DNA of 43,533 nucleotides from Candidatus Pacearchaeota archaeon. Lineage in GTDB: Archaea > Nanobdellota > Nanobdellia > Pacearchaeales > GW2011-AR1. The DNA lies in contig JAFCFX010000002.1 in the NCBI GenBank assembly GCA_017608405.1, positions 1 through 43,533 on the forward strand, read 5' to 3'. The notes under the pieces are model-generated. The model saw only the letters and a program-made list of their open reading frames with translations, was not told where the DNA came from and made no database searches. Of this stretch, positions 1,362 through 32,535 are shown piece by piece. Position 1 is the stretch's first letter; the number at the start of each line of letters is the position of its first letter. Both the position numbers and the translations under genes were made by a program.

Positions 1362-3650
1362 ATGATTAAGTATAATTCTAAGGAAGTGGAAGAAAAATGG
1401 AAAAAGTATTGGGAAAAAGAGAAGATTTACAAGTTTAATGGTAAAAGCAAGAAACCTGTTTTTAGTATTGACACTCCTCCACCAACTGTTTCTGGTAAAA
1501 TGCATATGGGTCATGCTTTTTCTTATGCTCAAGAGGATTTTATTGTTAGATTTCAAAGAATGTTTACAGGAAATGTATTTTATCCTTTTGGAACAGATGA
1601 TAATGGTTTACCTACAGAAAGACTTGTTGAAAGACTAAATAAAGTAAAGAGTAAACAAATGTTAAGGGAAAAATTCATAGATTTGTGTTTAAAGACATTA
1701 AAGAAAATAACCCCTGAATTTATTAAAGATTGGAAAGATTTGGGGATCTCTGCTGATTATGATGTTTGTTATTCCACAATTGATAGAAATTCTCAGAGGA
1801 TTTCACAAAAATCATTTATTGAGTTGTATAATAAATCAGAAGTGTATAAAAAAGAATTTCCAACAATTTGGTGTCCTGCATGCCAGACTTCTATTGCTCA
1901 AGCAGAATTAGAAGATAAGGATTTTGATGCACTTTTTTCTACTTTAAAATTTAAGTGTGATGATAAAGATTTACTTATAGCTACAACAAGACCAGAATTA
2001 TTAGGAGCATGTGTTGCAATATTTGTACACCCAGATGATAAAAGATATAAAAAATTGATTGGAAAAAAAGCTAAAGTGCCTTTATTTAACCACGAAGTTC
2101 CAATTATACAAGATAAATCTGCCGAAATTGAAAAAGGAACAGGAGTTTTAATGGTTTGTAGTTATGGGGATAAATTTGATGTTGATGCTATTAATAGGCA
2201 TAAGCTAAAGCCCAGAATTGTTTTAAATAAAGATGGGAGTCTGAACCTTGGCAACTATGAAGGATTGGGGATCAAGGGAGCTCGGAAGAAAATTCTTGAA
2301 GATTTAAAACAAGCTGATTTAATTAAACAACAAAAACAAATAGCACATGTTGTTAATGTTCATGATAAATGTGGCACTGCAATTGAGTTTCTTGAGACAG
2401 AGCAATGGTTTATTAAAATTCTTGATAAGAAAAAGAAATTTGTAGAGCAAGGCAAAAAAATTAATTGGCACCCAAAATTTATGTATAAAAGATATGGAAA
2501 TTGGGTTAGAGGGTTAGAATGGGATTGGAGTATTTCTCGAGAAAGGCATTTTGGGATTCCTATTCCTGTTTGGTATTGTAATGAGTGTAAAAAAACAATT
2601 TTACCTGATGAAAAAGAACTTCCTGTTGATCCTTTACAAACCAAGAAAAAATGTTCTTGTGGGGGACAAGCAATCCCCGAAGAGAAAGTTTTAGATACAT
2701 GGGCAACTTCTAGTTTGACCCCTGAAATTACAAGTTCATTGATTAATAATAAAGTTCAAACTCCTTATTCTTTAAGACCACAGGCACATGACATAATTAG
2801 GACTTGGGCATTTTATACTGTTGTTAAATCTTGGTTACATAAGAAGAAATTGCCTTGGAAAAATGTAATGGTTTCTGGATTTGTTAGATTAAGAGGGGAA
2901 AAAATGAGTAAGAGTAAAGGCAATGTTGTTGAGCCTCAAAAAGTAATGAGTGAATTTGGTTCTGATGCGTTAAGGTTTTGGGCTGCAGGTTCAAGACTTG
3001 GAGAAGATGTAGATTATCAAGAGAAAGATTTAATTGCAGGAAAAAAATTTATCACAAAATTGTTTAATGCTTCAAAATTTGTTTTTATGAATTTGAAAAA
3101 TTATAAGCCAAAGAAAATTAAGTTACTTGAAACAGATAGATTGTTTTTATCTAAATTAAATAAGTTAATTGAAATTTGCACCGAGAGTTTTAAAAATTAT
3201 GAATATAGTAAGGTAAAATTAGAAGCAAGTAATTTTTTCTGGCATTTGTTTTGTGATAATTATTTAGAGGTTGTTAAGAAAAGAGTTTATAATGGAACAA
3301 AACAAGAAAAAGAGTCTGCATTTTTTACTCTTTATAATTCTCTTTTAATAATCTTAAAATTAATGGCCCCAATTACCCCTTTTATTGCTGAAGAGATTTA
3401 TCAAAATTTCTTTAAAAAAACACAGAAGCATAGAAGTATTCATGTTTCTGAATGGCCTAAAAAAATTAAGATAAGCCAGAATAAAGAAGATCTTAAGCTT
3501 TTTGATGAAATAATTAAATTTAATAGCTTTGTTTGGAAAAAGAAAAAAGAAAAATCTATTTCTTTGAGAGATGAAATCTCAGGAATTAAAGTTCCAAAGA
3601 ACTTAATCAAATTTGAGAAAGATTTAATAGCTACGCATAATATTATTTAA
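1362..3650 (+). CDS. valS: Valine--tRNA ligase
   Basis: IDTPPPTVSG, HMGH, DWSISRER, DTWATSS, KMSKS; start moved from 1347 to ATG 1362 by TATA spacing (TTTTAAAA at 1333). Confidence 0.97.
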   Translation: MIKYNSKEVEEKWKKYWEKEKIYKFNGKSKKPVFSIDTPPPTVSGKMHMGHAFSYAQEDFIVRFQRMFTGNVFYPFGTDDNGLPTERLVERLNKVKSKQMLREKFIDLCLKTLKKITPEFIKDWKDLGISADYDVCYSTIDRNSQRISQKSFIELYNKSEVYKKEFPTIWCPACQTSIAQAELEDKDFDALFSTLKFKCDDKDLLIATTRPELLGACVAIFVHPDDKRYKKLIGKKAKVPLFNHEVPIIQDKSAEIEKGTGVLMVCSYGDKFDVDAINRHKLKPRIVLNKDGSLNLGNYEGLGIKGARKKILEDLKQADLIKQQKQIAHVVNVHDKCGTAIEFLETEQWFIKILDKKKKFVEQGKKINWHPKFMYKRYGNWVRGLEWDWSISRERHFGIPIPVWYCNECKKTILPDEKELPVDPLQTKKKCSCGGQAIPEEKVLDTWATSSLTPEITSSLINNKVQTPYSLRPQAHDIIRTWAFYTVVKSWLHKKKLPWKNVMVSGFVRLRGEKMSKSKGNVVEPQKVMSEFGSDALRFWAAGSRLGEDVDYQEKDLIAGKKFITKLFNASKFVFMNLKNYKPKKIKLLETDRLFLSKLNKLIEICTESFKNYEYSKVKLEASNFFWHLFCDNYLEVVKKRVYNGTKQEKESAFFTLYNSLLIILKLMAPITPFIAEEIYQNFFKKTQKHRSIHVSEWPKKIKISQNKEDLKLFDEIIKFNSFVWKKKKEKSISLRDEISGIKVPKNLIKFEKDLIATHNII

Positions 3651-3651
3651 G

Positions 3652-4740
3652 ATGGCGGCAATAACGAGAGATGAACTTGAAGAGGTTGTTGAAAAATTAG
3701 TAGCATATAAAGGTAGGCATACTGAATTAATTACCGTGTATATTGCTGCAGGTTATGATGTAAATTCTGTGCAAAAGCAACTTGAAGCAGAAAAGAGTAC
3801 AGCCAAGAACATTAAATCAACTTCAACACGCAAAAATGTTACTGAAGCTTTAGAGAAGATTGTGCGACATCTTAAAACCTTAAAGAAAACTCCTAAAAAT
3901 GGATTAGCTTTATTTTGTGGAAATGTGTCTAAGGTTGAAGGTCAACAAGATTTGCAATTATGGGATATTGAACCTCCAATGCCGGTTAAAATTAGGTTAT
4001 ATAGGTGTGATAAAGAATTTGTTCTAGGTCCTCTGCAAGAATTGCTCGAAGTTTCTGAAATTTTTGGTTTGCTGGTTATGGATAGGAAAGAGGCAACTAT
4101 TGGACTTTTAGAAGGAAAAAGAATAGAACTTTTACAGAAAATGACTTCGGGAATTCCTTCTAAAGTTAGGGCTGGGGGCCAAAGTTCTCAGAGATTTCAT
4201 AGGATTACAGAGGGGCTTACTAAGGATTTTTACAAGAGGATTGCAGATGAAATGAAGAAAATCTTTTTTAATAATGTGAAATTAAAAGGGATTTTAGTTG
4301 GAGGACCAATTCCAACTAAAGATGAATTTTTAGATAATGAATATTTAGTTACTAAACTAAAAGAAAAAGTTATTGGGAGAATTGATTTAGGAGATACATC
4401 TGAATCTGGGCTTAAGGAACTTGTGCAAAAAGCCCAAGAGATTTTATCAGATCAAGAGATAATTCATGAAAAAAAGATTTTAGAAAGATATTTTAATACT
4501 TTAGGAGAAAAACCAGAGATGGCGACTTTAAAGGAGCCAGACACAAAACAAGCTCTTGAATATGGGGCTGTAGATGTTTTGATTTTATCTAAGAATTTTA
4601 ATAAGGCAACAGCAAAAAAATTAAGGAAGATTGCTGATAAGATTGGTTCGATTGTTGAAGTTGTTTCGATAGAGACAGAAGAAGGTCAACAATTTGATAA
4701 TTTAGGGGGAGTTGGGAGTATTTTAAGGTTTAAGGTTTAA
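3652..4740 (+). CDS. prf1: Peptide chain release factor aRF1
   Basis: NIKS, YRCDKEF, GGQS motifs, C-terminal GGVGSILRF. Confidence 0.97.
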   Translation: MAAITRDELEEVVEKLVAYKGRHTELITVYIAAGYDVNSVQKQLEAEKSTAKNIKSTSTRKNVTEALEKIVRHLKTLKKTPKNGLALFCGNVSKVEGQQDLQLWDIEPPMPVKIRLYRCDKEFVLGPLQELLEVSEIFGLLVMDRKEATIGLLEGKRIELLQKMTSGIPSKVRAGGQSSQRFHRITEGLTKDFYKRIADEMKKIFFNNVKLKGILVGGPIPTKDEFLDNEYLVTKLKEKVIGRIDLGDTSESGLKELVQKAQEILSDQEIIHEKKILERYFNTLGEKPEMATLKEPDTKQALEYGAVDVLILSKNFNKATAKKLRKIADKIGSIVEVVSIETEEGQQFDNLGGVGSILRFKV

Positions 4741-9975: not shown

Positions 9976-10019
9976 TTCATCATGATAATATTTATTAATA
10001 CTTGCAATTATCTTTGATA

Positions 10020-10487
10020 ATGAAGATTAAAACTCATAGTGAAATTGAGGAAAGAATTTGTGATTTAAAAGAGCAAGGTAAAAAAATTGTGGGCGTTACA
10101 GGAACTTTTGATTTGTTTCATGAGGGGCATTTAGAGATTTTAATCCAAGCAAAAACTCAAGGTGATTATTTAGTCGTGGGATTAAATTCAGATAAATCTG
10201 TAGAGTTATATAAGGGGAATGGTCGTCCAATAATCAAAGAAAAATCTAGAGCGAGGATATTATCTGCATTAGAATGTGTTGATTATGTTGTGCTTTTTGA
10301 TACGCTAGAAATTTCAATCCCTTTGGTGAATTTGATTAAGCCAGATGTTTATGTTGAGGGTTCAGAATATGGGGAAAATTGTATAGCAGCAGAAGCTTTG
10401 AAGAAATGTGGAGGTCGTTTGTATTTGGTTGATAAATTTGAAGATATTTCTACTTCTGGTTTGATTAAGAAAATTAAGAGATTGTAA
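10020..10487 (+). CDS. Cytidylyl/adenylyltransferase (RfaE domain II/TagD-like)
   Basis: GTFDLFHEGH, VGLNSDKSV..KG.GRPI, VDYV, ISTS; start 10020 by TATA spacing. Confidence 0.9.
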   Translation: MKIKTHSEIEERICDLKEQGKKIVGVTGTFDLFHEGHLEILIQAKTQGDYLVVGLNSDKSVELYKGNGRPIIKEKSRARILSALECVDYVVLFDTLEISIPLVNLIKPDVYVEGSEYGENCIAAEALKKCGGRLYLVDKFEDISTSGLIKKIKRL

Positions 10488-10526
10488 TATAATAATCCTT
10501 ATTAATTCTAGTTATTAGGTTATTTT

Positions 10527-11258
10527 ATGTCTCAAGATAGAATTTCTGCTGGAAGTTTTGATTTAAATAAATGGCTTTTTGGAGGATATGAAAAAGGGGT
10601 AATTAGTATGATTGCAGGACCTCCTGGAAGTGGAAAAACTAATTTTTGTATTTTAACTGCTTGTAGTCAGGCAAGAAAAGGGAATAAGGTTATATTTATT
10701 GATACAGAAGGAGGTTTTAGTCCAGAAAGAGTTAAGCAAATTGTTGGGGAAAATTATACTAATATTTTGAAACATATCTTACTCTTAGAACCAAAGAGTT
10801 TTGATGAACAAAAAAAAGTTTTTACAAAACTTTTAGAGAGAGTGAAGAAAGAACATGTTTCTTTAATAGTAGTTGATGGCATGGCTATGCTTTATAGATT
10901 AGAATTAGGAGATGCCCTTAATGTTGGAGAAAGTGATACAATTAAGGAAGTTAATAGGGAAGTTGCACAACAGATGAGGGTTTTAGCTGAAATTGCAAGA
11001 GCTCAAAATATTTCTATTATTATTACTAACCAAGTGTATAAAGGATTTCAGTCTGAAAGAGATTGGAAACGAGGCAAGCAAGCTCAGATGAATCTTGTTG
11101 GAGGAGATCTTTTCAAATACTGGAGTAAGTGTATTATTGAATTAAAAGTAGAAGGAAATAAGAAAAAAGCAGTTCTCTTAAAACACAGGAGTTTACCTAG
11201 AAAGGAATTTGTGTTTGAGATAAAAAATAAAGGGATATTTAGGAAGCGTTGGATGTAA
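10527..11258 (+). CDS. radB: DNA repair and recombination protein RadB
   Basis: GPPGSGKT, IDTEGGFSPER, TNQV, KHR motif; no RadA N-terminal domain. Confidence 0.93.
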   Translation: MSQDRISAGSFDLNKWLFGGYEKGVISMIAGPPGSGKTNFCILTACSQARKGNKVIFIDTEGGFSPERVKQIVGENYTNILKHILLLEPKSFDEQKKVFTKLLERVKKEHVSLIVVDGMAMLYRLELGDALNVGESDTIKEVNREVAQQMRVLAEIARAQNISIIITNQVYKGFQSERDWKRGKQAQMNLVGGDLFKYWSKCIIELKVEGNKKKAVLLKHRSLPRKEFVFEIKNKGIFRKRWM

Positions 11259-11262
11259 TTAG

Positions 11263-11292
11263 TAAATAATCATCTGGTTGTTTGTTTTTTAG
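11263..11292. repeat. Palindromic site 1 of a four-copy family
   Basis: TAAATAATCATCTGGTTGTTTGTTTTTTAG; 19 bp identical to 12435-12453; 23/30 identical to 12268-12297. Confidence 0.75.
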
Positions 11293-11362
11293 ATTGAGTA
11301 ATTTAATCAGAACACTTGTATCTTACACTATCAATTTCAACATTTTCCAATCTTGGGCGTTA

Positions 11363-12232
11363 TTATACTATTTTGCTTTTATCTTCAACCAAATACCTTA
11401 TAATATTATAAGCATCATTTTGCTTTACTTTAAGTTGTATTAAAGGAGTTCGCAATCTAAATAAGCTAATACCTTTAATATTAAGATCTTTGTGTATTTT
11501 TAATATCATTTTAATAAAGGAATTTATTCTTTTTCTTGTATAATCTGCCTGATAACATAGTGTATCAATTTCGTGAATAAGTTTTCCCACATCCGCATGA
11601 GGGTCTGAAAATTTCATTTCATCTAAATCAATAATATATATTTTTCCTTTATTAGATACTAGAAAATTGCCAAGATGTGAATCTCCGTGAATTAAACTAA
11701 TCCATTTCGGAACATATTTTTTTACTCTTTTTTTTAATAAATTATATTCTCTTTCTTCAATTTTTCCTTTTTTATATAATCTTCTGGAATGTTTTAATAG
11801 TTTCATCTCATCTAAAGAATCTTTTCTAAGAACATACCATTTAGTTTTTTTTAAGTCAACATGGTGTAATTTTCCTAATAAAATAGCGACCCCTTTTAAA
11901 TATTTTCTTAAATTTTTAGATCTTTCTTCGATTAATGTCCTAAGAGATTTTCCATCTATGTATTCTTGAACAATTTCTTTATTTTCAATATCACTAAAGA
12001 TAATCTTCGGGGTGGGAATTTTTGAATCAACTAACTTATGATTAAAAACAGTTTTTTTAACTTCTTTCTTAGTTTTATAAAATTTTAAAACATAATGTTC
12101 TTTTTTTTTCTTGTGAACAATTAAAAGATAGACTTTGTTAACATATCCTCCACCAAGTAAAGAAAGTTCGTATTTTATTCCCTCCTTAGAAAGTTTTTTC
12201 AAATAGGTTGATTTTGGCTTGGGAACATGCAT
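11363..12232 (-). CDS. Aminoglycoside phosphotransferase/choline kinase family protein
   Basis: GGYVNKVY, VLK, LGKLH, HGDSHLGN (Brenner motif), IDLD. Confidence 0.85.
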   Translation of the reverse strand: MHVPKPKSTYLKKLSKEGIKYELSLLGGGYVNKVYLLIVHKKKKEHYVLKFYKTKKEVKKTVFNHKLVDSKIPTPKIIFSDIENKEIVQEYIDGKSLRTLIEERSKNLRKYLKGVAILLGKLHHVDLKKTKWYVLRKDSLDEMKLLKHSRRLYKKGKIEEREYNLLKKRVKKYVPKWISLIHGDSHLGNFLVSNKGKIYIIDLDEMKFSDPHADVGKLIHEIDTLCYQADYTRKRINSFIKMILKIHKDLNIKGISLFRLRTPLIQLKVKQNDAYNIIRYLVEDKSKIV

Positions 12233-12268
12233 TGTTTAAAGAATGTTTTAAGATTTATAAAACTAACC

Positions 12269-12355
12269 AAACAATCAGGTAATTGTTTATTTTTTAGTTT
12301 TTCTTTATTCTCTATGTTTTATTATTGGGGGTAGATTATTTACTCTCTTTTTCTA
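12269..12355. repeat. ~86-bp direct repeat, copy 1 (begins with palindromic site 2)
   Basis: Near-identical to 13239-13323 (2 substitutions, 2-nt indel in a T run). Confidence 0.92.
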
Positions 12356-12427
12356 ATTCTATTTCTTATTAATAAAATATTATTGCTAATTCTTGATTAA
12401 AGTTGTTAAAAATTAATTGTTTTATCG

Positions 12428-12457
12428 GACAGTCTCATCTGGTTGTTTGTTTTCTAC
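12428..12457. repeat. Palindromic site 3 (left arm degenerate)
   Basis: TCATCTGGTTGTTTGTTTT identical to 11270-11288. Confidence 0.75.
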
Positions 12458-12496
12458 TATAATAATCTTTATTAACCATAGGATAGAAATATTGAT

Positions 12497-13231
12497 ATGG
12501 GTAAAGCTGATAAGGTTTATGGTATGATTGAAAGGGCAAAAAAACCTTCAAATGCGATAACTTATGTTTATTTCTCGCTATTGAATAGATGGCATGATGA
12601 TTTTGGTGCTAAAATTCCTACTTTTGGTTTTGAACTGATGAAATCTATGTTTGAAAAAGTAGAAGACATAAGAAATTTAGATTTAAGTGTTGATGAATCA
12701 GATAGATATTTTCATGGTTATCTTGGACTTATCTCTGGAGAAAGTGATGAAGAAGTTAGGCAGGGAATATGCAAACTAGAAGATATTGCAAGAATTAATC
12801 CTTTTGAAAAAGCTTTTTTTGAGGATGCAGAGAGAAGGTTCAGAAAAGAATGTGTTTGGGAATACAAAGTTAGGGGTGCTACAGAATTAGATTCTTTAGG
12901 AGAAGAGCTTGTTCAATTTTTTCAAGTTAGAGAACATTATAGAAGGGAAGATGGACATGAACCAACAAAAAAACAAAAATATGAGGTTAGACAAATATTT
13001 GTAGTTAAAGAACCTTTGATTTTAGGTAGTAATTTGGGAATAGCTAATGAAGAAATTAGAAAATACTTTGAGAATCTTGAAGGGATTCCCTCGCTTTTTA
13101 GTGGTGTTAACTTTAATGTTCCTAAAAATTTTGATGTTGTATCAGAACTTGGGCTTAAACCATTACTTAAAAAGAAACTTACTTCTGATGATACCTTCTC
13201 AGGATTACATCATTTCGTTGTGCAAGGATGA
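12497..13231 (+). CDS. Hypothetical protein flanked by direct repeats
   Basis: 244-aa ORF; TTTATTAA 29 nt upstream; no family recognised. Confidence 0.75.
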   Translation: MGKADKVYGMIERAKKPSNAITYVYFSLLNRWHDDFGAKIPTFGFELMKSMFEKVEDIRNLDLSVDESDRYFHGYLGLISGESDEEVRQGICKLEDIARINPFEKAFFEDAERRFRKECVWEYKVRGATELDSLGEELVQFFQVREHYRREDGHEPTKKQKYEVRQIFVVKEPLILGSNLGIANEEIRKYFENLEGIPSLFSGVNFNVPKNFDVVSELGLKPLLKKKLTSDDTFSGLHHFVVQG

Positions 13232-13238
13232 ATTTTCT

Positions 13239-13323
13239 AAACAACTAGGTAATTGTTTATTTTAGTTTTTCTTTATTCTCTATGTTTTATTATTGGGGGT
13301 AGATTATTTACTCTCTTTTTCTA
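13239..13323. repeat. ~86-bp direct repeat, copy 2 (begins with palindromic site 4)
   Basis: TAAACAA-CTAGGTAA-TTGTTTA followed by sequence matching 12269-12355. Confidence 0.92.
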
Positions 13324-13409
13324 TGGTTTTTTTAATTAAATTAATACAACCCCCAAGTAACAATAAACTAATATAAACTTCTAATGCTTTATTTTAAAGA
13401 GGTGTTTCT

Positions 13410-14615
13410 ATGCAAGATATTCGCTTTGAAGTAATAAAGAAAATAGCACAAACTAGATTTAAGTATAAAAATATTGGAAAAATATCTAAATTAAATAGTA
13501 GTTCGCCTCCTAGTGTTTTTATTGGGAGTAAGTTAAAATATCCTTTAGTAAATGTTGGGATTTTATCTCCATTAGAGCGAGATGAAGATGCTTGGGTTTA
13601 TGATGATGCTAGATATTGGGCAAAAGAAGATTTTAGTATTCATGATGTTGTTAGGCTGAGAGACAACCTTTTGAATTCAAGGTTTCAGAGTAAGGTTCAG
13701 GATTCTAGGTTGAATAAAAAGTTTGTGCAAATTGCTCAAGAAGTTGCATTAGCAAGTAAGCCAGTAGATGTTGAGATTGAACTTAAAAATAAAGTTAGTT
13801 TAGGAAGAAAAAAAGATAGGGTTATTACTCAGATGGGTATGAGGGCAGGATTAAAAAAGGCTAGAATCACAGAGAATGTTAAAATAGATAGAAAGGTAGA
13901 TAAAGTTATTAATGATGAAGTAAAATCCTCTGAAGGATTAGAGTATCTTTATAAAAATAAATTTTCAGAATATGTTCTTTCTAAGATTTTGAGTGTAGGA
14001 GTTCTAGGATTAAAGAAGAATAAAAGATTAGTTCCTACTAGATGGAGCATCACTGCTACTGATGATACTATTGGAAAACAACTCTTGAAAAAAGTTAGAG
14101 ATTATAAATGGCTTGAAGATTTTGAATTCTTTTTTGGAGAGTTTATGGGAAATCAGTATATGTTGATATTTTTTCCAGGAGTTTGGAATTATGAATTATT
14201 TGAACTATATTTTCCTGGTTCTAGTTGGAATCCGACTCAAGAATTAAAAGCTTCCACTGATTTTGAATTGTATTCTGGAAGAAAGACATATGCTTTTGCA
14301 ACAGCAGGGGGATATTATGCAACGCGCCTTCCTATTTTAGAATATTTAAATAATATTAGGAGACAAGCTAGTGTTTTAGTAATAAGATTGGAGACTGTTA
14401 CTTATTGGGCAGCACTAGGGGTTTGGGTTGTGAGAGAGTCTGTTAGAAAAGCTCTTGCGAGAGGGAAAATAAAATTTGATAGTAAAGAAGAATTATTAAA
14501 TGGTGCTAAGAAGATTGCCAAAATCAAGTATGATTTTGATGTAGGTCAAGTTTTAAAAAAGAGTAAATTACTAGAGCAGGTTAATACTCAGAAGAGGTTG
14601 GTGGAGTGGTTTTAA
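13410..14615 (+). CDS. nreA: Nre family DNA repair protein
   Basis: SPPSVFIG..YP.VNVG, RLVPTRWSITATD, GGYYATRL, LGVWVVRESVR, C-terminal PIP box QKRLVEWF. Confidence 0.93.
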   Translation: MQDIRFEVIKKIAQTRFKYKNIGKISKLNSSSPPSVFIGSKLKYPLVNVGILSPLERDEDAWVYDDARYWAKEDFSIHDVVRLRDNLLNSRFQSKVQDSRLNKKFVQIAQEVALASKPVDVEIELKNKVSLGRKKDRVITQMGMRAGLKKARITENVKIDRKVDKVINDEVKSSEGLEYLYKNKFSEYVLSKILSVGVLGLKKNKRLVPTRWSITATDDTIGKQLLKKVRDYKWLEDFEFFFGEFMGNQYMLIFFPGVWNYELFELYFPGSSWNPTQELKASTDFELYSGRKTYAFATAGGYYATRLPILEYLNNIRRQASVLVIRLETVTYWAALGVWVVRESVRKALARGKIKFDSKEELLNGAKKIAKIKYDFDVGQVLKKSKLLEQVNTQKRLVEWF

Positions 14616-15125
14616 TAATTTTGGTTTATCTTTGGCATTTGAAAGCTGATGAAATGCCTAAAATAGTAGATTATCAAATAGGGCAACCAAAACCAAAAGT
14701 CCTCAAACCAGAAGAAATTCTTTTACCCTCAGATATAAAGAAGATGATTCAAGCTTGTTCTAATTCTAGAGATAAAGTTCTAATCTCCATTATGTTTGAA
14801 AGTGCTTGTAGGGTAAGCGAGATAGTTAACCTAAAAATTAAAAATATTTTAGTAGATGGGTATTGGATTAAAGTATCAGTAAAAGGAAAAACAGGAGAGC
14901 GAAATATAAGGTTAATAGATAGTGTTGGTTACATTCAAAATTGGATAAATGAGCACCCAGACAGAAAAAACAAATAAATTCACAGAACAACTAATGCACA
15001 CGCCAATATCTTCAAACACAGACACAAGTCAAGGGATGATGGAAACACTATATCAAACAATGAAGAATAACCTTTTAATGCTGGAAAAGTTCAAAGAGAT
15101 TTTAAAGGGAAGTGAGGAGAAATGA
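14606..15125 (+). pseudogene. Tyrosine recombinase relic (N-terminus and HxxR/Tyr region missing)
   Basis: SRDKVLISIMFESACRVSEIVNL, KGKTGER; stop at 14977, then out-of-frame tail TEQLM...LLMLEKFKEILKGSEEK* (14982-15125). Confidence 0.85.
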
Positions 15126-25587: not shown

Positions 25588-25626
25588 CTAAAATTAAAAT
25601 TTCGTCAGAGAACCCTAATAGAATTA

Positions 25627-31782: not shown

Positions 31783-31880
31783 AATTTATACAGATATTTG
31801 CCTCTTTTAAACCTAACCATATAAAATTATACAACTCCTTTATTAAAATCAGGTTTCACCTTATTTTCTTTAACTTCTTT

Positions 31881-32535
31881 TATTCTTTTATTTAGTAAGG
31901 GTTTTATTTCATCTTTTATATATCTAGAATATAAATCATTTTCTTTATCAGCTATTAACATAAGCTCTGTCAGATTCTATTGTTAAATCTGAAACATTAA
32001 TTCTTACAATTTCAGAAATTCTGCCTCCTGTTTCTCTCATTAAAGAGATTAAGAATTTTTCCATAAAACTACGACACGCAGGGATTAGAATTTTTTGTAA
32101 TTCTTCAAATGTGATTAACTCTTTAGCGTTTATCTCCTGACATTCAAGAGTATGTAATTTCATCCAGTCAACAACTTTAGGATACTTGTCTCTCTCCTCT
32201 ATTTTGTATAGCCATTTAAAAAATAGTTTAATGTTCATCTTCATAACATTAATATAATTGGGTTTTTTATTAGAAGAGTGAATCTCTAAGAATTTCTTAA
32301 TATCTGTTTTAGTCATTTTCTTAAAAGGTTTTTTAACATCATAAGCCATCCTTTTTATCAATCCTACTTTAACGTACAAAGAAGTAATTGACATATGTAA
32401 GTTGTCCTTAACATATCTCATTATTGTATTCCCCTGCTCTTTTGTAACCCATTTATCATTCATTACAACATTGTTGATTATCCTGTTCTTAAAGACTAAA
32501 TCTTTAATCTTATCATACTTCTCTTTATTATCCAT
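31881..32535 (-). pseudogene. Tyrosine recombinase relic (SAM-like N-domain + box I; remaining catalytic core deleted)
   Basis: KLFFKWLY...YP.VVDW, ETGGRISEI; stop at 31948; out-of-frame tail IADKENDLYSRYIKDEIKPLLNKE*. Confidence 0.82.

Follow-up and report, generated by a model that had tools for sequence, protein, structure and literature searches.

The radB-nreA locus

The window analysed here, a stretch of 43,533 nt from a Candidatus Pacearchaeota archaeon (GenBank assembly GCA_017608405.1, contig JAFCFX010000002.1, positions 1 to 43,533 of the forward strand), carries four related short sites between the conserved genes radB and nreA. The gene order is rpoL, a cytidylyltransferase-like gene, radB, an APH-family kinase gene on the minus strand, an orphan open reading frame (ORF) of 244 aa (ORF244), nreA, and a 123-aa tyrosine-recombinase fragment. 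The sites are of two kinds, A boxes (sites 1 and 3) and B boxes (sites 2 and 4), and each A-B pair encloses one gene; past a spacer, the B box is followed by a further conserved sequence, the G box, with GGGGGTAGATTATTTACT, an inverted copy of the left end. With only a slight lean, we read the four sites as boxes that mark internal boundaries in a mobile element, small, modular and non-autonomous, of which two copies lie here in tandem with the enclosed genes as cargo. The features are as follows, in window coordinates.

10527..11258, plus strand: radB, the conserved upstream anchor (Pfam Rad51, 2.6e-25)
11261..11271, plus strand: left terminal inverted repeat AGTAAATAATC, the perfect inverse complement of GATTATTTACT at 12334-12344 and 13302-13312
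11264..11288, plus strand: site 1, an A box, AAATAATCATCTGGTTGTTTGTTTT, with its core TCATCTGGTTGTTTGTTTT at 11270-11288; left boundary of cargo 1
11363..12232, minus strand: cargo 1, an APH-family phosphotransferase of 289 aa (Pfam APH, 2.8e-18)
12254-12262: TATA-like box TTTATAAAA of cargo 1, the kinase's own
12269..12293, plus strand: site 2, a B box, AAACAATCAGGTAATTGTTTATTTT, with the dyad AAACAAT-CAGGTA-ATTGTTT and a T run; right boundary of cargo 1
12269..12355, plus strand: copy 1 of an 87-nt direct repeat, spanning the full right end (B box, spacer and G box) and 10 nt more
12327..12345, plus strand: G box and right terminal inverted repeat, copy 1, GGGGGTAGATTATTTACTC, kept in 17/17 aligned right ends
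12350..12437, plus strand: stuffer segment ending in CGGACAGTC-TCA, 87/88 nt identical to the interior of C23:31485-31675 in the same assembly
12429..12453, plus strand: site 3, an A box lacking the left terminal repeat, ACAGTCTCATCTGGTTGTTTGTTTT, core at 12435-12453; left boundary of cargo 2
12497..13231, plus strand: cargo 2, the orphan gene ORF244 of 244 aa, its ATG 43 nt past the A box
13239..13263, plus strand: site 4, a B box, AAACAACTAGGTAATTGTTTATTTT; right boundary of cargo 2
13239..13323, plus strand: copy 2 of the 87-nt direct repeat, the second copy of the right end
13295..13313, plus strand: G box and right terminal inverted repeat, copy 2, from the alignment of right ends
13410..14615, plus strand: nreA, the conserved downstream anchor (Pfam Nre_N, 6e-77; Nre_C, 1e-28)

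A sequence-only reading of this DNA had described four related palindromic sites with alternating cores. Their positions and the alternation hold, the left arm of site 3 not being AAAYAA, as do the spacings: site 1 begins 5 nt past the radB stop (11258), with the element itself starting 2 nt past it, site 4 begins 7 nt past the ORF244 stop (13231), site 2 begins 6 nt beyond the kinase TATA-like box, and site 3 ends approximately 14 nt before the likeliest TATA (12468-12475). All four lie on the same strand and are thus direct repeats. The exact 19-mer TCATCTGGTTGTTTGTTTT is common to sites 1 and 3. The 87-nt direct repeat opens with site 2 in one copy and site 4 in the other (25 nt each); its last 64 nt are exact, and two substitutions and a 2-nt indel all fall within the first 27 nt. 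Counted by eye in an 11-6-11 layout, arm symmetry is 9/11 for site 2, 7/11 for site 4 and approximately 4-6/11 for the A boxes. The promoter region of nreA (AAGTAACAA...ATATAAACTTC) lies outside the element, and its motif is common to relatives that have no element.

The strict motif AAAYAA-N8-TTGTTTRTTTT occurs three times in the assembly (G000; 535,527 bases, 26 contigs, 31% G+C, 76% complete), each time at this locus, versus 0.0 in ten second-order Markov simulations. The 19/20-mer of the A box and the B repeat are likewise confined to the locus, the sole further match in the assembly to a 20-nt A query at no more than three mismatches being C19:71508. The bare palindrome AAACAA-N8-TTGTTT shows no enrichment (four strand-counts, representing two sites, versus 4.0 expected), so that the signal is the repeat and not the dyad symmetry; the genome-wide scan bears out a motif specific to this locus in its strict form, and returns the loose palindrome at chance frequency. 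Rfam has no family for 11000-13600 at E≤1. The one public run found to include the organism is of DNA at very low depth (9% of sampled words); it yielded a few 151-nt contigs identical to radB and ORF244, at a depth of approximately 2, and no joints.

Structure of the unit

Seventeen right ends were aligned and the terminal repeats compared in 17 elements. The left end has the consensus (A/G)GTAAATAA, then TCATCTG(G/A)TT(G/T)TTT(G/A)TTTT. The right end comprises CTAAA(A/C)AA, (T/C)CAGGT(A/G)(A/T)TT(G/A)TTTATTT, a variable spacer of approximately 34 nt, and GGGGGTAGATT(A/G)TTTACT. Between the two ends lies the cargo, in either orientation, with one promoter-bearing gene per cargo-bearing unit. 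The right-end boxes are invariant or nearly so among the 17 sequences and the spacer between them is variable, with a YTTTATAA-like motif, as judged by eye, at a fixed place. The 64-nt extension of sites 2 and 4 is this conserved right end and is therefore not merely a local duplication. The window's two right ends have identical spacers, whereas the spacers differ between all other copies, which indicates that one of the two was copied from the other.

Reverse-complementing the final 11 nt of the element, GATTATTTACT, gives exactly its first 11, AGTAAATAATC. Left and right terminal repeats agree at seven or more of 11 positions in 15 of the 17 elements and at all 11 in five, the other two being mis-registered by the coordinates used. 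The left-end string AAATAATCATCTGG recurs inverted in both right-end boxes, matching the B box (AAAYAATTACCTGR reverse-complemented) at 10-12 of 14 positions by eye; in the right end, the terminal repeat is thus present twice in direct orientation, at a distance of approximately 53 nt. A host hairpin split by insertion was considered as the source of these repeats and rejected, as the uninterrupted palindrome, found in 2 of 401 genomes of the order versus 2 for its control, exceeds that control in no way, and the repeats accordingly belong to the element. Folded as single-stranded DNA, the B box forms a 7-bp hairpin (-3.5 kcal/mol, z -1.4) and the A box reaches 0 kcal/mol; z is -1.0 for the whole right end and -0.1 for an abutted B/A junction. 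There was no covariation or compensatory change in the 17 aligned right ends, and, with hairpins this weak, a structured RNA or attC-like fold was rejected.

Replacement of cargo in orthologous positions

In genome G154, rpoL and radB (75% identical) are followed by an A box, then by a minus-strand gene for a cysteine-rich product of 77 aa, by a B box plus G box, and lastly by nreA (78% identical). Nucleotide homology to the window covers 10491-11290, ending at the right edge of site 1, and resumes at the left edge of site 4 (13233-13888), extending into nreA; G154 also aligns to the window's first right end (12264-12342). The sequence-only reading had proposed to compare this interval in relatives for other cargo flanked by the same sites, and G154, with its 77-aa gene instead, is such a case. 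A further slot is shared by contig C13 of G295 (L083) and the metagenome contig L153, whose flanks are 77-80% identical and whose boxes are the same; the cargo is an 86-aa minus-strand gene in the former versus a 183-aa plus-strand gene in the latter, homology breaking just past the A box and resuming at the left arm of the B box. In two orthologous slots, then, homology breaks off at the A box and picks up again at the B box, which supports the cassette reading. The junction of TYW1 and a 116-aa gene is occupied in G295 by an element with a 96-aa cargo and in G124 by one that is oriented the other way and has a cargo of 267 aa. From the cassette-like array originally proposed, exchangeable one-gene units between sites are retained; the notion that the sites are self-contained recombination sites is not. 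That these sequences form a family of inverted-repeat-bounded, one-gene modular elements, with cargo replaced between the A and B boxes, is well supported.

Among 12 same-family loci fetched around nreA, the adjacency of radB and nreA is kept in 11, radB not being found on the 3.3-kb contig of L032. The gap between the two genes in those relatives ranges from approximately 5 nt to approximately 6 kb and holds different small genes, and by eye the sites are present in none. The gap of approximately 6 kb is that of L025 (G012:C1), and L024, L027 and L030 (G002, G015 and G008) have a similar small gene in this position, starting ...LSLEEIS..Y..V.LDTSAL and PIN-like by eye. On the other side of radB, the gap to rpoL in relatives varies from tens of bases to approximately 3.3 kb; the cytidylyltransferase-like gene that occupies it in the window (10002-10487) had no tblastn match (E≤1e-5) in the loci of 12 relatives.

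A cargo-less copy and the TCA junction

A cargo-less copy of approximately 190 nt, with both ends present, lies at C23:31485-31675 of the G000 assembly, between a 125-aa gene and rpS27ae. After the left repeat plus TCATCTGG come a non-canonical arm and 88 nt of stuffer, whose end is CGGACAGTC; a B box, a spacer of 36 nt and a G box complete the copy. The stuffer is 87/88 nt (99%) identical to window positions 12350-12437, between the first right end and site 3, and site 3 has a degenerate left arm because that arm is the end of the stuffer. With a slash marking the junction, the empty form in C23 reads ...CGGACAGTC-TCA/GGTATTTGTTTATT (beginning GGTAT) and runs into an intact B box. The filled form in the window reads ...CGGACAGTC-TCA/TCTGGTTGTTTGTTTT (beginning TCTGG), followed by ORF244 and AAACAAC-TA/GGTAATTGTTTATTTT (beginning GGTAA). 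The window and C23 make up a filled-against-empty pair, the junctions in both lying at the TCA that the A and B cores share.

The same junction of CGGACAGTC and A box as in the window is found in L044, a locus labelled Nanoarchaeota. Approximately 130 nt upstream of the A box of L044, abutted left and right terminal repeats, GTAAATAATC-AGT-GATTATTTAC, form a perfect palindrome directly past the stop of a truncated gene for a transposase of insertion sequence (IS) type; a stuffer ending in CGGACAGTC and then the A box follow.

Distribution

The A box was searched for in the 401 genomes of the order, with the reversed pattern as a control and the control totals tallied from per-genome tables. 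At no more than two mismatches there were 73 A-like matches versus 28 for the control; B-like matches at two mismatches numbered 33 versus 12 and were concentrated in the same genomes as A. The 16 A matches with no more than one mismatch cluster in G000, G020, G124, G154, G295 and G328, with singles in G231 and G392. Eleven of these 16 have a G box on the same strand within 2 kb downstream. The five that do not are two in G328 (abutted junctions), one of three in G020, the one in G392, and the one in G231, which falls inside a 529-aa ORF and is probably due to chance.

In all, 21 distinct units were recognized, 14 in six species-representative genomes from six genera and seven on metagenome contigs, distributed as follows.

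G000: three units (two in the window, one on C23)
G020: two units
G154: one unit
G365: one unit
G124: four units
G295: three units
Metagenome contigs: seven units

Three metagenome matches identical to G020, G124 and G365 were left out as duplicates. The metagenome search employed a 17-mer of the G box, which gave 104 matches, where approximately 100 would be expected by chance on a rough estimate. Eighty were fetched, and of these 15 were kept (B box no more than 80 nt upstream, or A box no more than 2.5 kb upstream) and 65 set aside as probable chance. In 13 of the 15 a B box lies 52-63 nt upstream of the G-box match; the remaining two have an A box alone. The exact A 19-mer was found 19 times in contigs of one genome per species. 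Four matches are in DPANN records titled Woesearchaeota, Pacearchaeota or Nanoarchaeota, three of which share more flank with site 1 or site 3; the other 15 (bacteria or a Poseidoniales archaeon) are mostly within genes, look like chance, and were discarded. Viral contigs yielded 16 G-box and seven A-box matches, none of which combined boxes, and hence no sign of carriage by viruses.

Abutted arrays, in which a B box directly precedes the next left end, occur in L119 (twice), L173 and L096. An empty platform, with the left end joined straight to the B box, was not found among the loci examined. At five B-plus-G ends (L101-L104, L107) no A box was detected; a reverse-strand gene or a visible start codon lies just upstream of each, and their A box has probably diverged too far for detection. 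Ordinary genes (S51 peptidase, SPFH, GNAT, methyltransferase) occupy the stretch that two convergent A boxes flank in G020 (L090).

Cargo genes

The 16 cargo-bearing units tabulated have one ORF each, of 73-289 aa, on the minus strand in 13 and on the plus strand in three, relative to the boxes. Two further units, C23 (188 nt) and L170 (564 nt), lack any ORF reaching 40 aa. When 16 cargo proteins were scanned against Pfam, four matches exceeded the curated cut-off: APH, DUF7674, DUF2569 and SKI (a shikimate/cytidylate-kinase-like P-loop protein), which are mutually unrelated. A Yip1-like match fell just below it, two small proteins had weak sub-threshold matches, and nine had no match; no recombinase or transposase was present among the 16. 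A homologue of the kinase was found in none of 250 other genomes of the family at E≤1e-10. ORF244 has no counterpart in 40 relatives, matches only itself among 5.8 billion protein clusters, and has no Pfam or NCBIfam match; concerning its function, all matches in a language-model atlas were sub-threshold (≤0.80). Both cargo genes of the window, being without homologues in relatives, are thus accessory.

The distance from the B-box TCA to the ATG is 43 nt in six of the first eight minus-strand cargos, including the kinase, and 42-43 nt in seven of 12 once four further single units are added; among plus-strand cargos, the A box lies 43 nt from the ATG in two of three. A TTTATAAA-type box is found approximately 26 nt upstream of the cargo ATG, and this promoter spacing suggests leaderless transcripts. 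The spacer between the A box and the kinase stop (11289-11362) is 74 nt, compared with 4-10 nt in most other units, and may contain a remnant of an earlier cargo.

Chromosomal position

The units are intergenic and usually lie just past the stop of a housekeeping gene. Judged from translations, the genes upstream of the A box are radB (G000 and G154) and PCNA-, SMC-, PyrH-, TYW1- and RPA-like genes, of which only the window radB was Pfam-scanned. Several upstream stop codons fall within the TAGTAAATAA of the left end, and the next gene is usually convergent. No tRNA stands next to any box in 20 loci, the tRNA-Gln of L095 being approximately 500 nt off and the sole tRNA of the window being at 25626. 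By eye, the right end in L103 (G328:C1) adjoins an apparent tRNA 3′ end on the opposite strand (TGGTCCATCGAGGAATCGAACCTCG).

Candidate enzymes

G000, a genome of approximately 0.5-0.7 Mb, has two intact XerA-type genes, located at C15:8321-9148 (minus strand) and C6:259-1104 (plus strand). Their best-fitting model is that of XerA, NF040815, with 238 and 227 bits (cut-off 220). These two tyrosine recombinases are the only candidate enzymes in the genome. No IntI-type integrase was found there; the XerA proteins score 204 and 198 bits with TIGR02249, in two split stretches, against a cut-off of 265. The XerA family is matched in all five element-carrying genomes checked and in 358 of the 401 genomes of the order, usually in one to three copies.

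Two tyrosine-recombinase relics lie on the window contig, one at 14606-14977 (123 aa), with a TAA inside a longer match at 14720-15034, and one at approximately 31849-32115, with nine stops inside the match. The former had been tied to the sites by the sequence-only reading, a connection that gained no support: nothing links the two, and the relic is absent from the 12 relatives' loci searched around nreA.

IS200/IS605 and DDE elements were rejected as autonomous partners on the basis of their end sequences, and, since G000 is 76% complete, this does not prove the lack of a cognate IS. An origin as an IS200/IS605-derived element (PATE) was likewise rejected, as PF01797 has no match in G000 or G124, the IS200 copies of G295, G020 and G328 are without the boxes, and the hairpins are weak. 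An IS200-like element of approximately 600 nt, encoding a 135-aa Y1 transposase, is present in three copies in G295 (C28, C30 and C12; 85-92% identical), with a related copy on C18 of G020 (loci L216-L218 and L221). In G000, the 6.7-kb contig C16 carries two divergent DDE_Tnp_1 genes, at 2689-3216 (minus strand) and 3856-4386 (plus strand).

Interpretation

If the four sites are the boundary boxes of two tandem mobile-element copies, a trans-acting, sequence-specific enzyme would recognize the repeated end motif and move whole units, and would exchange or insert the gene module by cutting and rejoining DNA at the TCA that both cores, A and B, contain. The tandem arrangement in the window would then have formed when the ORF244 module joined a copy of the cargo-less type at TCA, beside the kinase unit, with duplication of the right end. 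A cassette circle would place AAACAA-TCA beside TCTGGTTGTTT. From the filled and empty junction, the inverted repeats, the arrays of abutted ends and the cargo-less copy, we infer that a sequence-specific enzyme joining at TCA is to be favored.

Several observations weigh against this interpretation. No within-species presence/absence polymorphism was seen, movement being deduced from the comparison between genera. Half of the A boxes (12 of 24, the window's two included) lie 0-25 nt past a same-strand stop and are T-rich, which would fit a transcription signal as well. No unit carries an enzyme, no span of 1.2-8 kb from A to G box exists in 248 loci (0.92 Mb), and the copy number of tyrosine recombinases does not track the elements, with one match in G295 (at least five units) and one in G365. 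Nor is any transposase family consistently associated: among five element-carrying genomes, DDE_Tnp_1_6 is matched in none, rve in one, TnpB in two, Y1 transposase in three and DDE_Tnp_1 in four, and G000 has no match to Y1 transposase, TnpB, rve or DDE_Tnp_1_6. The boxes (at no more than three mismatches) are found at none of nine IS200-type loci nor at the DDE locus of G000. By eye, the ends of 11 elements show no target-site duplication and no common flanking bases. Copy number is low, with three in this assembly. Finally, the A and B cores differ (TCATCTGG versus TCAGGTAA), and a classical tyrosine recombinase requires identical overlap regions for recombination of A with B.

The main rival, which we nevertheless consider unlikely, holds that the units are mobile regulatory cassettes resembling the PeSL of phages, the boxes being transcription signals and the genes being shuffled by homologous or microhomology recombination with no dedicated recombinase. 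The A box would be a T-rich terminator and the B box a dyad operator at the cargo promoter, and the TATA-like box of the spacer would fire outward at the G box. The position of the A box after the stops of radB (in two genera), PCNA, SMC, PyrH, TYW1 and other genes named from translations agrees with this, as do the spacing of 42-43 nt (7/12) at which the B recognition element (BRE) and TATA of minus-strand cargos adjoin the B box, the corresponding 43 nt of plus-strand cargos (2/3), and the YTTTATAA-like motif that by eye keeps its place in the spacer; no enzyme was found, homology breakpoints at the box edges suit recombination within the boxes, and T4-type phages offer a precedent in what is set out in part of PMC2839356. 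Terminal inverted repeats, a double right end, a cargo-less copy of 190 nt and abutted arrays are, however, transposon features. Minus-strand cargo leaves the B box no plus-strand transcript to terminate; with only three copies in the genome, the boxes do not serve it as a general terminator or promoter; the hairpins are weak and do not covary; and the junction of stuffer and A box has no more than TCA in common with the empty form, which is not enough for homologous recombination.

More doubtful still is a strict tyrosine-recombinase model, in which the AAAYAA-N8-TTGTTT dyads would be XerA/dif-like core sites, as in pdif modules and Xer-exploiting elements, and cassettes would move as circles. 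There are two intact XerA genes in a genome of 0.5 Mb and a family match in every element-carrying genome checked (5/5; 358/401 in the order), the B box has the 11-6-11 geometry (9/11 in site 2) given for archaeal dif in a portion of PMC2958812, filled and empty junctions meet at a common TCA, and on an excised circle the site would read AAACAA-TCATCTGG-TTGTTT, almost a perfect dyad. On the other hand, the A-box arms are poorly symmetric (approximately 4/11), the two cores differ, the boxes are dispersed (over seven contigs in G295 and five in G020), unlike the unique dif, recombinase number is uncorrelated with the elements, and the relic by nreA is a 123-aa fragment missing from 12 relatives' loci. 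All sites are direct repeats, whereas pdif modules alternate. The strict model fails on the last point together with the asymmetry of the A box, and with it the original description of the sites as palindromes of dif or pdif type, although as the chemistry of exchange it keeps a small probability; the actual unit is one of 11-bp terminal inverted repeats with a bipartite right end. The absence of any mobility, with ordinary gene-end and promoter motifs and a local tandem duplication in the assembly, is strongly disfavored and in our estimation very improbable. It can draw on the chance frequency of the bare palindrome, the modest excess over the control at two mismatches (73 versus 28 for A, 33 versus 12 for B), and the radB-nreA spacing of approximately 5 nt to 6 kb in relatives without sites. 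Against it stand the fixed order of A then B around exactly one unrelated gene in 16 units, the terminal inverted repeats, the 99%-identical stuffer on another contig, and the replacement of cargo in orthologous slots. Of the two outcomes that would have counted against the array, an ordinary signal at gene ends or invariant content in relatives, the former has partial backing in the terminator-like position of 12 of 24 A boxes, and the latter is contradicted by the cargo, which is not invariant.

Members of the DPANN have very small genomes and yet gain accessory and orphan genes. The ends of these elements are recognizable by sequence alone and common to several genera, with a replaced gene in two slots, so that vague insertion hot spots become searchable and testable. 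The boxes can be used to catalogue a mobile gene pool in metagenomes and to fish for the enzyme, and binding and recombination could be assayed in vitro with the two XerA paralogues, for which no culture is needed.

Comparison with known systems

No description of this element family was found in the full-text literature searched, with the sequence supplement of a census of MITEs (miniature transposable elements with inverted repeats), PMC11602168, lying outside that scope, where the cargo-less form might be listed. MITE-rich genomes among the DPANN are reported in a section of that census.

In mobile insertion cassettes (MICs), inverted repeats of the IS type bound passenger genes, there is no transposase, and movement occurs in trans. 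Both terms, MIC and MITE, follow passages of PMC3129680. The present units resemble these elements in having short terminal inverted repeats and one passenger gene with no transposase inside (16 cargo proteins), in having a cargo-less miniature copy in the same genome, and in occurring as several dispersed intergenic copies. They differ in that no cognate IS with these ends was found and no target duplication was seen, in that the ends are asymmetric, with one repeat on the left and two on the right, and in that the passenger is swapped at boxes inside the element, whose ends do not move. To our knowledge, exchange of the latter kind is not a described property of MICs.

The PeSL of T4-type phages (Arbiol et al. 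2010) are mobile regulatory cassettes in which, according to part of PMC2839356, conserved signal cassettes flank ORFans. As far as that part goes, the likeness lies in short signal cassettes around single ORFans and in gene replacement between close relatives exactly at the cassettes, and the difference in that the phage unit is one repeated promoter plus stem-loop, whereas here there are two boxes in fixed order with terminal inverted repeats on a cellular chromosome. Position and TATA-like sequence are what would point to a signal function of the present boxes.

The sites of pdif modules flank in opposite orientation, dif is a single site per chromosome, and both pdif modules and Xer-exploiting integrative elements (IMEX) are bacterial. 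The archaeal XerA/dif site, as given in an excerpt of PMC2958812, has 28 bp, with two 11-bp inverted arms and a 6-bp center. Small modules, dyad sites with a short central region and a host Xer-type recombinase at hand are points in common with these systems; by contrast, the sites here are direct, are neither plasmid-borne nor at a unique dif, and include an A box without dif-like symmetry.

Archaeal integrons (Ghaly et al. 2022) are recognized, in the relevant portion of PMC9668308, by an IntI-specific domain and by attC sites that are imperfect hairpins of 57-141 nt. The units described here fall outside the integrons on two counts, integrase domain and attC fold. An IntI with the IntI-specific domain is lacking, as are folded sites of the attC type; nor is there a single attI platform, each unit being its own dispersed miniature platform with most cargo under its own promoter. 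They share with integrons promoter-adjacent single-gene modules of unrelated function, arrays, and exchange at short conserved boundaries. It is conceivable, and we offer this only as a tentative proposal, that they constitute an integron-like but dispersed gene-capture system of tiny symbiotic archaea, in which inverted-repeat platforms of approximately 100-190 nt behind housekeeping genes hold one cassette each, exchanged at double-stranded dyad boxes through a XerA-type paralogue or another enzyme. If so, it would represent a defined route of gene gain for genomes of 0.5-1 Mb.

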